From sequence record OY720014: 64,000 nt of DNA; one strand, given 5' to 3'. The first letter of the stretch is position 1. The number at the start of each line of letters is the position of its first letter. The position numbers and the translations under genes are program-made. The notes beneath the pieces were generated by a model. It made no database searches. It worked only from the letters and a program-made list of their open reading frames with translations, and was not told where the DNA came from. This stretch comes from Escherichia phage vB_Eco_QOTSP. Shown here in pieces: positions 10,763 to 12,356 of the stretch.

Positions 10763-10835
10763 TGGGAATTAGCCAAGTTGGTAAGGCACTGGATTTTGAT
10801 TCCAGGATGCAAAGGTTCGAGTCCTTTATTCCCAG
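10763..10835 (+). tRNA. tRNA-Gln (anticodon UUG); no encoded CCA
   Basis: Cloverleaf by eye: acceptor TGGGAAT/ATTCCCA, anticodon stem CTGGA/TCCAG, loop TTTTGAT, T-loop GGTTCGAGTCC. Confidence 0.8.
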
Positions 10836-10836
10836 C

Positions 10837-10923
10837 GCGAGAATGGTCAAATTGGTAAAGGCACAGCACTTAAAATGCTGCGGAATGATTTCCTTGTGGG
10901 TTCGAGTCCCACTTCTCGCACCA
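10837..10923 (+). tRNA. tRNA-Leu (anticodon UAA), long variable arm
   Basis: Acceptor GCGAGAA/TTCTCGC, anticodon loop CTTAAAA, long variable arm, encoded CCA. Confidence 0.8.
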
Positions 10924-10928
10924 AATTT

Positions 10929-11002
10929 GCGGATATCGTATAATGGTATTACCTCAGACTTCCAATCTGATGATGTGAGTTCGATTCTCATTATCCGCTC
11001 CA
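10929..11002 (+). tRNA. tRNA-Gly (anticodon UCC)
   Basis: Acceptor GCGGATA/TATCCGC, anticodon stem TCAGA/TCTGA with loop CTTCCAA, encoded CCA. Confidence 0.8.
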
Positions 11003-11048
11003 ATTTATGACTCGTCGTGAGACGCTCAGTTCTTTATTAGGGACTGAT

Positions 11049-11657
11049 ATGCATTTTTATCTTTATAAAATAACAAATAAAATTAATAATAAAATTTATA
11101 TTGGTGTGCATTCTACCGAAAATTTAGATGATGGATATATGGGTTCTGGTAAATTATTAAAAAGAGCCCAAGATAAATATGGTATAGAAAATTTTTCTAA
11201 AGAAATATTAGAGTATTTTGACGATAAAGAATCTATGCTTGAAGCCGAGAAAAATATTGTCACAGAAGAGTTTTTAAATAGACCAGATGTGTATAATTTA
11301 AAACTTGGAGGTGAAGGTGGATGGGATCATATAAATAATTATCCTATGACAGATCAGCAACGCGAATTAATTTCATTGGGTGTTAAAAAGGCGCATTCTA
11401 ACGGAAAATTAAAAGGATGGTCTTCAAATGGATTAATGAAGAATGGCTTTGCTGGTAAAACTCATTCTCAAGAAGCTAAACGTAAAATAGCAAAAGCAAA
11501 CGAAGCAAAAGTTTCTGCGGATGAAAGAAAAAGAAGAATAGAAATTTCTAAATTATATGATTTTTCTAAACGTGGCGAATTGTCTAAATATGCTAAGCAT
11601 ATTGGCGTAAGTCATACTCAAGCAAAAAGAATTCTAAATCAAATTAACAATATATAA
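11049..11657 (+). mobile_element. segB: GIY-YIG homing endonuclease (SegB-like) inside the tRNA cluster
   Basis: N-terminal FYLYKITNKINNKIYIGV GIY-YIG motif and basic C-terminal DNA-binding region; splits the tRNA genes; track ORF begins at 11007, ATG at 11049 preferred. Confidence 0.8.
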
Positions 11658-11663
11658 ATATTT

Positions 11664-11753
11664 GGAGGCGTGGCAGAGTGGTTTAATGCACCGGTCTTGA
11701 AAACCGGCAGTCGCTCCGGCGACTCATAGGTTCAAATCCTATCGCCTCCGCCA
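11664..11753 (+). tRNA. tRNA-Ser (anticodon UGA), long variable arm
   Basis: Acceptor GGAGGCG/CGCCTCC, anticodon stem CCGGT/ACCGG with loop CTTGAAA, encoded CCA. Confidence 0.8.
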
Positions 11754-11759
11754 GTTTTT

Positions 11760-11835
11760 GCTGATTTAGCTCAGTAGGTAGAGCACCTCACTTGTAATGA
11801 GGACGTCGGCGGTTCGATTCCGTCAATCAGCACCA
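11760..11835 (+). tRNA. tRNA-Thr (anticodon UGU)
   Basis: Acceptor GCTGATT/AATCAGC, anticodon stem CCTCA/TGAGG with loop CTTGTAA, encoded CCA. Confidence 0.8.
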
Positions 11836-11836
11836 A

Positions 11837-11911
11837 GGCCCTGTAGCTGGAAGGTTCAAGCAAGCGACTCATAATCGCCAGATGGTGGTTCAATTCCACC
11901 CAGGGCCACCA
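11837..11911 (+). tRNA. tRNA with CAU anticodon (Ile, lysidine-type as in T4, or Met)
   Basis: Acceptor GGCCCTG/CAGGGCC, anticodon loop CTCATAA, T-arm GGTGG/CCACC, encoded CCA. Confidence 0.7.
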
Positions 11912-11920
11912 AATTAATTT

Positions 11921-12007
11921 GGGGAGTTATCCCGTAGAGGTAGCGGTGTGGACTGTAAATTCATTGTCATTGCGACTCGGGTGGTTCGACTCCACCACTC
12001 CCCACCA
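11921..12007 (+). tRNA. class-II tRNA-like gene, candidate tRNA-Tyr (anticodon GUA)
   Basis: Acceptor GGGGAGT/ACTCCCC, anticodon loop CTGTAAA, long variable arm, T-arm GGTGG TTCGACT CCACC, CCA; anticodon stem has two G-U pairs. Confidence 0.55.
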
Positions 12008-12011
12008 ATTT

Positions 12012-12086
12012 GGATGTGTAGCTCAATGGCAGAGCGATCGCCTGTTAAGCGATTGGTTATAGGTTCGAATCCTATCACGTCCGCCA
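12012..12086 (+). tRNA. tRNA-Asn (anticodon GUU)
   Basis: Acceptor GGATGTG/CACGTCC, D-stem GCTC/GAGC, anticodon stem ATCGC/GCGAT with loop CTGTTAA, encoded CCA. Confidence 0.7.
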
Positions 12087-12200
12087 AATTTGTGACAACT
12101 GTCACATTAATATCTACTTGACGCGATTATAGGGGTTGAACTGATCACTCTTCTCTTAATTTCGTGTGAAGACATCTTGATTGTTGGAGTAGGTATTAAT

Positions 12201-12276
12201 GTGGCCGTAGTTCAGTTGGTAGAACTCGAGATTGTGATTCTCGTAGTCATGGGTTCGACTCCCATCGGTCACCCCA
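12201..12276 (+). tRNA. tRNA-His (anticodon GUG)
   Basis: Acceptor GTGGCCG/CGGTCAC, anticodon stem CGAGA/TCTCG with loop TTGTGAT, discriminator C, CCA. Confidence 0.7.
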
Positions 12277-12280
12277 ATTA

Positions 12281-12356
12281 CGGGGCATAGCTCAGAAGGA
12301 AGAGCAAGGACCTTCTAAGTCCTAGGTCGTAGGTTCGATCCCTACTGCCTCGACCA
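12281..12356 (+). tRNA. tRNA-Arg (anticodon UCU)
   Basis: Acceptor CGGGGCA/TGCCTCG, anticodon stem AGGAC/GTCCT with loop CTTCTAA, encoded CCA. Confidence 0.75.

Follow-up and report, generated by a model that had tools for sequence, protein, structure and literature searches.

The tRNA region of the window, i.e., of the whole 64,000-nucleotide stretch of DNA analysed here, is very probably (a probability of about 0.85) the transcription unit for tRNAs and stable RNAs in an RB18/AR1-type Tequatrovirus, with a gene content that represents one state of a mosaic reshuffled by homing endonucleases. This reading draws on the genes and their identities, the mosaic structure and its breakpoints, and the codon statistics, all obtained in the present analysis. 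The cluster is already known, as it is annotated in dozens of GenBank records of T4-like phages, and is ordinary for the genus. The redescribed region itself is of little consequence, since its variability, its shuffling by endonucleases and a defence-related role of tRNA-Tyr have all been published. The only element that is possibly new is a folded RNA ahead of tRNA-His, together with the odd tRNA-His that follows it.

Gene content and place in the genus

ARAGORN predicted exactly ten tRNA genes, all on the + strand and with the positions and anticodons that the first-pass annotation had proposed from cloverleaf inspection, and found no further tRNA genes in the rest of the 64 kb. The features of the region are as follows.

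10763..10836, + strand: tRNA-Gln (UUG), with G73 and one C, no CCA (ARAGORN; Rfam, 67.4 bits)
10837..10923, + strand: tRNA-Leu (UAA), class II, CCA encoded (ARAGORN, Rfam)
10929..11002, + strand: tRNA-Gly (UCC), CCA encoded (ARAGORN, Rfam)
11049..11657, + strand: SegB-like GIY-YIG homing endonuclease (Pfam GIY-YIG, PF01541, and NUMOD3; alignment to T4 SegB)
11664..11753, + strand: tRNA-Ser (UGA), class II, CCA encoded (ARAGORN, Rfam)
11760..11835, + strand: tRNA-Thr (UGU), CCA encoded (ARAGORN, Rfam)
11837..11911, + strand: CAU tRNA, most likely tRNA-Ile2, CCA encoded (ARAGORN, Rfam)
11921..12007, + strand: tRNA-Tyr (GUA), class II, 87 nt, CCA encoded (ARAGORN)
12012..12086, + strand: tRNA-Asn (GUU), CCA encoded (ARAGORN, Rfam)
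12101..12200, + strand: conserved structured leader RNA (folding, z = -4.36; covariation; no Rfam match)
12201..12276, + strand: tRNA-His (GUG), C73 and CCA, T at -1 (ARAGORN, Rfam)
12281..12356, + strand: tRNA-Arg (UCU), CCA encoded (ARAGORN, Rfam)
12375..12725, + strand: 116-aa ORF with no assigned function, between tRNA-Arg and rnaD
12722..12839, + strand: rnaD homologue (species 2 stable RNA), 99.1% identical to T4 rnaD, aligned from 12725
12846..12984, + strand: rnaC homologue (species 1 stable RNA), 98.6% identical to T4 rnaC
13035..13066, + strand: intrinsic-terminator-like hairpin and T run (hairpin itself 13035-13058)

The Rfam tRNA model placed nine of the ten genes above its gathering score (59-74 bits, E 1e-10 to 1e-14). 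The tenth, tRNA-Tyr, has a long variable arm and a weak D stem, and was matched only by the tRNA-Sec model (30.9 bits), falling below the threshold of the tRNA model. The Tyr-like, Asn and His calls, which had been regarded as open to rejection by prediction software, were all accepted by ARAGORN. Minimum free energy folding of single genes was uninformative for lone tRNAs; tRNA-His, for example, did not fold into a cloverleaf by this method. Direct reading of the 3' ends bore out the claim that tRNA-Gln is the sole gene lacking an encoded CCA, which the other nine carry. tRNA-Leu begins right after the single C of tRNA-Gln, giving a dimeric Gln-Leu arrangement.

The CAU tRNA, previously left as Ile or Met, is most likely tRNA-Ile2, for which conversion of C34 to lysidine, charging with Ile and reading of AUA are predicted. 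Its best E. coli match is annotated as tRNA-Ile (81.6% over the full length), and it is not an initiator because it has a G1:C72 pair. The acceptor pairs C4:G69 and C5:G68, read from the sequence, are reportedly the TilS determinants described by Ikeuchi et al. in 2005, and the anticodon arm aligns with that of a tRNA-Ile2 reference sequence. By alignment, the gene is the T2-type allele, unlike the allele of T4 and T6. The gene is named tRNA-Ile in the RB18 record and Met in others.

An end of the cluster at 12356, as first assigned, proved too early, since the ORF, rnaD, rnaC and the terminator-like hairpin lie further on. The ORF at 12375-12725 matched no Pfam family, and is present in T2, RB18 and RB51 and absent from T4. 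The rnaC homologue has a tRNA-like T arm (fold z = -4.55), and rnaD and rnaC are located 3' of tRNA-Arg, as in a T-even tRNA region. The hairpin at 13035-13066 is the probable end of the transcription unit. Polycistronic precursors would be transcribed from about 10763 to this putative terminator near 13060. By analogy with T4, the tRNAs would probably be released by RNase P and the 3'-processing enzymes of the host, and the host CCA-adding enzyme would additionally be needed for tRNA-Gln.

A 1,701-bp query matched 955 phage records, 53 of them at a coverage of at least 80%; the best matches, at 98-99.5% identity, carry annotations of the same features. RB18, AR1, KIT03 and about 50 other Tequatrovirus records share all ten genes and their order, as well as the endonuclease gene. 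The region lies between the 57A/57B-ip-tRNA.4/.3/.2 and e.8-e genes on one strand; on either side of it, the window can be aligned with T4, T2 and T6, and RB18 has the same flanking genes (57A, 57B, tRNA.4-.2, e.8), with the endonuclease annotated as 'segB'. The cluster differs from that of T4 (Gln, Leu, Gly, Pro, Ser, Thr, Ile(CAU) and Arg; Tyr, Asn and His are absent), as the first-pass annotation had stated, but its repertoire is not unusual within the genus, given the identical sets of RB18, AR1 and KIT03. tRNA counts among T-even phages are eight in T4, nine in T2 and ten or eleven in other relatives, and a Shigella-phage set has ten tRNAs including Pro and without His (PMC11993411).

A SegB-like cassette in place of tRNA-Pro

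The presence of a GIY-YIG endonuclease gene between tRNA-Gly and tRNA-Ser was confirmed by Pfam (27 bits, cutoff 22.6). The ORF encodes 202 aa from the ATG at 11049; an in-frame upstream ATG at 11007, the annotated start in RB18, gives 216 aa. Over residues 1-96 the protein differs from T4 SegB only at one position near residue 95 and at four of the five N-terminal ones; the corresponding DNA (11063-11337) is 99.3% identical to T4. The YIG motif residues Y17 and G19 (T6 SegB numbering), for which mutant data exist in T6 (PMC13096335), are kept. From residue 97 onward we found no meaningful alignment to T4 or T6 SegB, i.e., no SegB-type DNA-binding C-terminus, the region on which the choice of target depends. 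The C-terminal half carries the NUMOD3 motif (Pfam) and has its relatives among Seg-like proteins from phages of Klebsiella, Aeromonas and Serratia, together with an ORF fragment of T2; 55 records contain this variant with an identity of at least 95%.

The breakpoints of the cassette were defined by comparison with L010, an IMG/VR contig bearing an 11-tRNA version of the cluster in the order Gln, Leu, Gly, Pro, Ser, Thr, Ile, Tyr, Asn, His, Arg. Agreement between this contig and the window ends at 11007 and resumes at 11663; the cassette (11008-11662, 655 nt) stands in place of 80 nt bearing tRNA-Pro. The 5' junction, CCA followed by ATTTATGACTCG..., is the same in T6, there after tRNA-Tyr and here after tRNA-Gly. 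Because tRNA-Pro is precisely replaced relative to L010, we infer that the SegB-like enzyme would cut site-specifically in tRNA genes of relatives that lack the endonuclease, and home into them. tRNA-Pro is thus absent because the cassette replaced it and not through a selected change of the repertoire; the 'missing Pro' would be a by-product of endonuclease insertion. This is a clean case of a homing endonuclease deleting a tRNA gene, as Pro is gone and CCA codons are still enriched, and it warns against treating every phage tRNA repertoire as adaptive.

A folded RNA ahead of an unusual tRNA-His

The 114-nt gap between tRNA-Asn and tRNA-His (12087-12200) is not an empty spacer, but holds a conserved, covarying three-helix RNA. 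Helix P1 pairs 12106-12119 with 12187-12200 and ends at nt -1 of tRNA-His; P2 spans 12121-12167 and P3 spans 12171-12185. An optional outer extension pairs 12101-12105 with nt +1 to +5 of tRNA-His, and a small hairpin lies upstream (12091-12106). In the alignment, 94.8% of cells were paired as compared with 36-49% in slid controls, and 10 pairs had changed on both sides. An Rfam search of 12087-12200 on both strands with permissive filters gave no match at E ≤ 1 and none at the gathering threshold. The element is absent from T4, T2 and T6; it also occurs ahead of tRNA-Gln in W70, and in STP4-a it precedes a tRNA-His remnant followed by tRNA-Asn. A loose DNA pattern run on IMG/VR returned 25 loci, 20 of them new, among which the covariance model accepted only one (L035), the other 19 being chance matches. 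Distant Aeromonas T4-like phages have only a hairpin of about 19 bp, likewise flush against their own tRNA-His, which also lacks G-1.

Several known classes were considered for this element and rejected. Its junction strands (1, 3 and 1 nt) are at odds with a hammerhead or another small ribozyme of that kind. A promoter is contradicted by the change of TTGACG to TCAACG in Jiaodavirus, by the lack of a -10 box and by a scan that gave no + strand site. Homology with T4 rnaC or rnaD was discarded as there is no sequence similarity, and a bacterial or prophage origin as a single pattern scan across 185,579 bacterial and archaeal genomes found no match. Nor is the helix a universal partner of G-1-less phage tRNA-His, since mycobacteriophage Bxz1 lacks both G-1 and the helix.

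The tRNA-His gene has the GUG anticodon and C73 discriminator of a bacterial-type tRNA-His. Direct comparison with E. coli hisR showed T at position -1 of the window gene and G in the host gene; an encoded G-1 is otherwise nearly universal. T at -1 was found in all 12 related tRNA-His loci, and also in the tRNA-His genes of Aeromonas phages Ah1 and PX29 and of Bxz1. Renumbering the gene so that G12201 becomes G-1 was rejected, as this breaks U8/A9, the D-arm and the CCA register. Encoded G-1 pairs with C73; RNase P leaves it in place, and it is the major identity element for HisRS (PMC3064791, PMC4338351, PMC6582537). The G-1-less tRNA-His may be poorly chargeable. No paper describing a G-1-less phage tRNA-His or the leader RNA was found in the open-access subset of the literature.

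We tentatively suggest, as a proposal with the odds well against it, that the leader is a phage RNA gene or processing module, not described before, which controls 5'-end formation of tRNA-His or, alternatively, is released as a stable RNA. In the former case, the P1 helix may provide an entry site for RNase III, or may block or shift cleavage by RNase P and so leave an additional 5' nucleotide or phosphate in place; the leader would thereby decide the chargeability of the G-1-less tRNA-His. In the latter, the released RNA might have an anti-defence or regulatory role. A functional link between leader and tRNA-His, if there is one, would bear on how phages make a His tRNA usable or deliberately unusable, and the dependence of host HisRS on G-1 is the setting in which such a link would matter.

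Retention of the tRNA set and comparison with known systems

The first-pass annotation had offered codon demand and replacement of nuclease-cut tRNAs as reasons for the set. Codon usage of the window ORFs, compared with an E. coli sample of only 37 genes, showed enrichment of CAA (1.6 times), TTA (2.4), GGA (3.0), TCA (3.2), ACA (3.8), ATA (3.2) and AGA (7.6). Gln-UUG, Leu-UAA, Gly-UCC, Ser-UGA, Thr-UGU, Ile-CAU and Arg-UCU, the seven T4-type tRNAs, would decode these A/U-ending codons overused relative to the host, and for them codon demand is upheld. It fits Tyr and Asn weakly, these residues being 1.4 times commoner in the window ORFs than in the sample, and fails for His, which is rarer in the phage ORFs (0.81 times). 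Moreover, CCA codons are 1.85 times enriched despite the lost tRNA-Pro, and Lys, the most enriched residue (2.2 times), has no phage tRNA. tRNA-Lys is the target of PrrC and RloC, and no tRNA-Lys gene is among the ten of the cluster. Since His is depleted while CCA and Lys are enriched without a tRNA, gene content is not fully predicted by codon demand. That all ten tRNAs are retained solely for codons overused by the phage and underserved by the host is accordingly doubtful; besides the depletion of His, Tyr, Asn and His are each served by one host isoacceptor family and so pose no rare-codon problem, and T6 tRNA-Tyr has a published defence-related phenotype (PMC13096335). Somewhat better placed, although still unlikely, is a largely neutral origin of the set through homing-endonuclease gene conversion and recombination between the short A/T-rich spacers that separate the tRNA genes. 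The precise replacement of tRNA-Pro fits this, as do the differing positions of the cassette (it follows Gly in the window, Tyr in T6 and Ile in T4), a fragment of T2 between Ser and the CAU tRNA that resembles a Seg C-terminus (41.5% identity), and the occurrence of two CAU alleles and many 8-11-gene combinations within one genus. SegB is known to cut many tRNA genes within the T-arm and to carry flanking tRNA genes along, with about 1.25 kb of them co-converted, and the preferred cleavage site of T4 SegB sits within T2L's tRNA-Asn gene (PMC2330249). In the window, the CAU, Tyr and Asn genes are contained in a stretch of 254 nt with 99.2% identity to T2. On the other hand, the core tRNAs are 95-99% identical across hundreds of genomes and match phage codon bias, which argues for selection on at least the core tRNAs.

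For the genes beyond this core, we consider it more likely that tRNA-Tyr, and possibly Asn and His, would buffer the tRNA pool of the infected cell against tRNA-cleaving defences. That such buffering is the main reason for the whole Tyr-Asn-His block, with phage copies replacing or competing with cleaved host tRNAs, we would put somewhat short of an even chance. In T6, overexpression of tRNA-Tyr rescues the phage from Septu, deletion of the tRNA region sensitises it, and the tRNA is detected by northern blot (PMC13096335). The window gene is identical to this T6 gene at 87 of 87 positions, and may have the anti-Septu role shown for the T6 sequence. tRNA-Tyr is also a target of the retron-Eco7 PtuAB, and the Tyr gene is 84-96% identical in rV5-like and T5-like phages and 82-83% identical on E. 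coli plasmids of about 110 kb, as expected of a mobile counter-defence gene. Colicin E5 cuts exactly the Tyr, His, Asn and Asp tRNAs (PMC1635277), so that the block comprises three of the four UQU-anticodon tRNAs cut by nucleases of this type. Relatives in Jiaodavirus and Karamvirus carry Asn, Asp and His, with Tyr also in Jiaodavirus clusters; the general hypothesis has been published (PMC10264068), and His is left unexplained by codon demand. Against this, no defence is known to target Asn or His in T-even infection. No mutation that would allow escape was seen in the three anticodon loops (Tyr, Asn and His), all of which keep the YGUN determinant of colicin E5 (PMC1635277), and the idea that they are escape mutants was therefore rejected. 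Septu PtuAB cuts tRNA-Tyr in its variable loop, the phage copy included, and wild-type T6 with its one tRNA-Tyr copy is only partially protected (PMC13096335); any protection would therefore operate via dosage and not resistance. Thus, the suggested replacement of tRNAs cut by anticodon nucleases holds for Tyr through the published T6 work, but not as to the anticodon. It is very improbable that some of the extra genes, namely Tyr with its weak D stem and His without G-1, are functionless, decaying pseudo-tRNAs. The sub-threshold Rfam score of Tyr, the label 'tRNA-Pseudo-GTA' given to a related Tyr-like gene in Pet-CM3-4, the relative instability described for T6 tRNA-Tyr (PMC13096335) and the missing main HisRS identity element of His would agree with decay. 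However, the same Tyr sequence is expressed with a phenotype in T6, tRNA-His alleles of related phages vary by compensatory stem changes that leave the cloverleaf intact, and both genes are conserved across several genera.

The closest known counterparts are RB18, AR1, KIT03 and vB_Eco_EL (MH553563, NC_027983, AP018932 and OZ034682), which are 98.9-99.5% identical over 1.7 kb and likewise have a SegB-like gene between Gly and Ser and the 114-nt stretch before His. There is essentially no difference; their records annotate the tRNAs and leave the leader RNA unannotated. T4 (NC_000866, 70.9-72.5 kb) has the same genomic position and strand logic and shares the core, with identities of 96.6% for Gln-Leu-Gly and 95.9% for Ser-Thr; tRNA-Arg(UCU) is present in both, although blastn, at the threshold applied, did not align its two alleles. 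T4 also has a SegB-family GIY-YIG gene in the cluster, but between Ile and Arg and with another C-terminal half. It further differs in having Pro and the other CAU-tRNA allele, and in lacking Tyr, Asn, His, the leader RNA and any ORF separating Arg from rnaD. Both Tyr and Asn are already found in T2, in the near-identical CAU-Tyr-Asn stretch mentioned above, and Pro is kept there, but T2 has neither Thr nor His, and no leader or intact Seg gene. In T6, the region upstream of segB equals the cassette junction of the window; segB follows Tyr, and no Pro, Ser, Asn or His is annotated in the stretch of T6 that was fetched.

As for the leader RNA, the nearest analogues are the T4 species 1 and 2 RNAs (rnaC and rnaD), which are small structured RNAs within a tRNA transcription unit, bounded by tRNA processing sites and of no known function (PMC3014915); unlike them, the leader directly abuts the 5' end of a tRNA. 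For tRNA-Tyr, the counteraction of retron-Eco7 by T5 tRNA-Tyr is a further system close to the window gene. Another is the anti-Septu device of T6, composed of tRNA-Tyr and SegB (Chihara et al. 2026, PMC13096335). The window shares its tRNA-Tyr sequence, the near-identical N-terminal catalytic domain of SegB with Y17 and G19, and the adjacency of tRNAs and a Seg gene; unlike in the T6 device, the endonuclease of the window is not beside tRNA-Tyr and its C-terminal half has been swapped.

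The ten-tRNA cluster among T-even relatives

ARAGORN found exactly ten tRNA genes in the window, all on the + strand, and none outside these ten anywhere in the 64 kb. This reproduced the coordinates and anticodons given by the first-pass annotation for a cluster at 10763-12356, including the Tyr, Asn and His calls. Nine of the genes passed the gathering score of the Rfam tRNA model (59-74 bits), while tRNA-Tyr (11921-12007) reached only 30.9 bits, against the related tRNA-Sec model, because of its weak D stem. It is a genuine gene despite this sub-threshold score: it is identical to T6 tRNA-Tyr at 87 of 87 positions, and the T6 gene has been documented by northern blot and phenotype (PMC13096335). 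Reading of the 3' ends showed an encoded CCA in nine of the ten genes, the exception being tRNA-Gln, as had been noted, in which G73 and one C are followed by the first base of tRNA-Leu. A GIY-YIG domain was found in the ORF between tRNA-Gly and tRNA-Ser, where such a gene had been proposed. Taken together, the ARAGORN and Rfam results, the identity to T6, the 3' ends and the GIY-YIG domain therefore confirm the initial observation in every detail.

The 1.7-kb stretch matched 955 phage records, 53 of them with at least 80% coverage. The best matches (98.2-99.5% identical; vB_Eco_EL, CrRp10, NR1, KIT03, AR1, RB18 and others) already carry annotations of the same tRNAs and a homing endonuclease. 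The annotated order in RB18 is Gln, Leu, Gly, segB, Ser, Thr, Ile(CAU), Tyr, Asn, His, Arg, flanked by 57A, 57B and tRNA.4-.2 on one side and by e.8 on the other. Thus, this is the standard Tequatrovirus tRNA region, deposited many times; the cluster is real, ordinary and already annotated. T4 contains Gln, Leu, Gly, Pro, Ser, Thr, Ile(CAU), segB, Arg, rnaD and rnaC, in agreement with the earlier statement that it has Pro and lacks Asn, His and Tyr. The repertoire accordingly differs from that of T4, as claimed, but it is not unusual, since such variation is routine within the genus. T2 has Gln, Leu, Gly, Pro, Ser, an ORF, CAU, Tyr, Asn and Arg; T6 is annotated with Gln, Leu, Gly, Thr, CAU and Tyr, then segB; a published Shigella Tequatrovirus set comprises ten tRNAs with Pro and without His (PMC11993411); and the IMG/VR genome L010 (167,948 bp) has eleven, the ten of the window plus Pro. 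What sets the cluster apart from T4 stems from a known mosaic driven by endonucleases.

The CAU tRNA (11837-11911) is the T2-type allele, clearly distinct from that of T4/T6, and two CAU-tRNA alleles, a T4/T6 type and a T2/window type, are in circulation among T-even phages. Its acceptor stem has G1:C72, C4:G69 and C5:G68. G1:C72 means that it is not an initiator; C4:G69 and C5:G68 are TilS determinants, and the anticodon arm resembles that of E. coli tRNA-Ile2. Among E. coli genes it matches best, at 81.6% over the full length, one annotated tRNA-Ile, and an AUA-reading tRNA-Ile2 is the most likely identity.

Downstream of tRNA-Arg, the unit continues with the following features, rnaD and rnaC lying beyond the interval first described.

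12375-12725, + strand: 116-aa ORF with no Pfam family, absent in T4, separating tRNA-Arg from rnaD
12722-12839, + strand: T4 rnaD homologue, 99.1% identical
12846-12984, + strand: T4 rnaC homologue, 98.6% identical
13035: terminator-like hairpin with a T run

The rnaC of the window has a tRNA-like T arm and a fold z of -4.55; a 2010 T4 review (PMC3014915) listed rnaC and rnaD as having no known biological role.

A SegB-like cassette in the place of tRNA-Pro

The window and L010 are collinear up to 11007, just past the CCA of tRNA-Gly, and again from 11663, one base ahead of tRNA-Ser. Between these breakpoints, L010 has 80 nt with tRNA-Pro and the window has 655 nt (11008-11662) with the endonuclease gene. 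At its start (CCA|ATTTATGACTCG), this cassette is the same as the T6 sequence upstream of its segB; T6 has the cassette after tRNA-Tyr, and in T4 segB lies after tRNA-Ile. The alignment suggests that the loss of tRNA-Pro is a by-product of cassette insertion.

Residues 1-96 of the encoded protein are those of T4 SegB except for four of the first five and one near residue 95, and the corresponding DNA (11063-11337) is 99.3% identical to T4. Y17 and G19, mutation of which inactivates T6 SegB (PMC13096335), are present. The C-terminal half, which bears a NUMOD3 motif, is unrelated to T4 SegB; 55 records carry this half at 95% identity or more, and it has 70% relatives in Klebsiella phages. The enzyme is a chimera in which the catalytic domain of T4 SegB is joined to another C-terminal half. 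T4 SegB cuts tRNA genes in the T-arm region, with the T2L tRNA-Asn gene as preferred target, and co-converts approximately 1.25 kb of flanking tRNA genes (PMC2330249). The window retains its tRNA-Asn gene, within a stretch 99.2% identical to T2, which is consistent with the different DNA-binding half of its enzyme. We infer that the target of this enzyme is the Pro-bearing allele, homing into which would have removed tRNA-Pro.

A 9-bp hairpin, TCAGTTCTTTATTAGGGACTGA (11026-11047), stands directly before the ATG (11049) of the SegB-like gene, over the probable ribosome-binding site, and may regulate how the endonuclease is translated. The RB18 annotation starts the gene at an upstream in-frame ATG (11007). 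An orphan ORF of T2 between tRNA-Ser and the CAU tRNA (L004, 3711-4112), mis-annotated as "tail sheath monomer", is 41.5% identical to the SegB-like protein's C-terminal half and appears to be what is left of a degraded Seg endonuclease.

Codon supply and tRNA-cleaving defences

Codon demand and the replacement of tRNAs cut by host nucleases had been offered as explanations of the set. Codon usage was compared between 89 window ORFs (17,079 codons) and 37 annotated MG1655 genes (13,074 codons).

Codon usage in window ORFs relative to MG1655 genes
Gln, CAA: 1.6 times, enriched
Leu, TTA: 2.4 times, enriched
Gly, GGA: 3.0 times, enriched
Ser, TCA: 3.2 times, enriched
Thr, ACA: 3.8 times, enriched
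Ile, ATA: 3.2 times, enriched
Arg, AGA: 7.6 times, enriched
Tyr and Asn, both codons each: 1.4 times (residue usage)
His, both codons: 0.81 times, not enriched
Pro (tRNA lost), CCA: 1.85 times, enriched
Lys (without phage tRNA), both codons: 2.2 times, enriched

Codon supply explains the T4-type core (1.6-7.6 times), but neither His, at 0.81 times, nor the loss of Pro, the CCA codon of which is enriched 1.85 times.

The nuclease explanation is supported for Tyr by published T6 work on the identical sequence, with the cut in the variable loop. The Septu system EcB88 cleaves tRNA-Tyr at that site; overexpression of T6 tRNA-Tyr restored plating, deletion of the T6 tRNA region sensitised the phage, and escape mutants had amplified tRNA-Tyr together with segB (PMC13096335). 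Septu cleaves the phage tRNA-Tyr as well, so that protection is a dosage effect (PMC13096335). Colicin E5 has four tRNA targets, Tyr, Asn and His among them (PMC1635277), and coliphage tRNAs have already been proposed as a counter to such nucleases (PMC10264068). Since the anticodon loops of Tyr, Asn and His all keep the susceptible YGUN, and no anti-phage nuclease directed at Asn or His is documented here, a nuclease-countering role of these two is put forward as a hypothesis only. The functional ideas were correct in part, and they had already been published.

The tRNA-Tyr gene recurs at 94-96% identity in rV5-like phages and at approximately 84% in T5-like phages. Tyr and part of Asn (11921-12086) match at 82-83% on ~110-kb E. 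coli plasmids, probably phage-plasmids, in regions annotated tRNA-Tyr, Thr and Asn. By these matches, tRNA-Tyr appears to behave as a mobile module moving between phage families.

A structured leader before a tRNA-His without G-1

The 114-nt spacer between tRNA-Asn and tRNA-His is as conserved as tRNA-His itself in Karamvirus and Jiaodavirus phages. A 106-nt query spanning it matched 355 phage records by BLAST, from Tequatro-, Karam-, Jiaoda- and Gelderlandvirus and one Vequintavirinae. RNAalifold predicted that 12106-12119 pair with 12187-12200 in a closing helix of 14 bp, the last pair of which takes in nucleotide -1 of tRNA-His; the helix encloses two hairpins, and the His cloverleaf is left intact. 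The leader alone folds at -32.7 kcal/mol (z = -4.36). With a covariance model based on seven sequences, the element was further recovered in the Jiaodavirus cluster L035 and in Salmonella phage Melville, and no leader was found in the T4, T2 and T6 loci. Among eight distinct sequences, few in number and in an alignment fitted to the model and so favouring the structure, 94.8% of cells were in standard pairs, against 36-49% with slid partners; 10 pairs had changed on both sides, against at most 3 in slid controls, and 0 of 500 shuffles reached the observed values on four of five measures. Invariant G:U pairs assign the RNA to the strand of the tRNAs. The spacer (12087-12205) is a conserved RNA with three covarying helices.

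In its distal part (12138-12150; L013, L035), the second helix comes in two fully compensated versions, with either UGAUCA or UCAUGA, both palindromic hexamers, in the loop. In the third loop, AUCAUGAU is frequent. These loop motifs could allow loop-loop dimerisation or protein binding. The element is not strictly tied to tRNA-His: it lies between tRNA-Gly and tRNA-Gln in W70 (Vequintavirinae), and in STP4-a it is followed by a four-base tRNA-His remnant and then tRNA-Asn. Neither Rfam nor a single pattern scan across bacterial and archaeal genomes gave a match to it. Further inter-tRNA gaps of 65-250 nt (Asn-Asp, Asp-Met, His-Ser, Ser-Ile) occur in Jiaodavirus clusters (L006-L008, L035), which might hold more unannotated structured RNAs.

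G-1, the major HisRS identity element, is genome-encoded in bacteria (PMC3064791, PMC4338351, PMC6582537). E. coli hisR starts GGTGGCTA with G at -1, whereas tRNA-His of the window starts GTGGCCG (12201) with T at -1 (12200). T was present at -1 in 12 of 12 related tRNA-His loci and, across the loci compared (window, L005-L016, L035, L039-L042), in all the Tevenvirinae relatives examined; T also stands at -1 in the Aeromonas T4-like phages Ah1 and PX29 and in mycobacteriophage Bxz1, and Burkholderia phage FLC9 has G. A description of the leader or of a G-1-less phage tRNA-His was not found in the literature searched, an incomplete, open-access subset, and the structured leader beside a G-1-less tRNA-His may be the sole new element here.

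Ah1 and PX29 (L040, L041, 366-405) lack the two inner hairpins of the leader but keep a ~19-bp hairpin before tRNA-His, its 3' strand running through -1 into +1 to +5; this appears to be the flush-helix arrangement in a minimal form. Bxz1 has no helix before its tRNA-His, so the association is not universal. Kinship of the leader with rnaC or rnaD was ruled out, there being no similarity. The leader may have a role in 5' maturation or identity of tRNA-His. However, we prefer the hypothesis that the leader would be a stable RNA freed by the RNase P cut at the 5' terminus of tRNA-His, by analogy with species 1 and 2 of T4.
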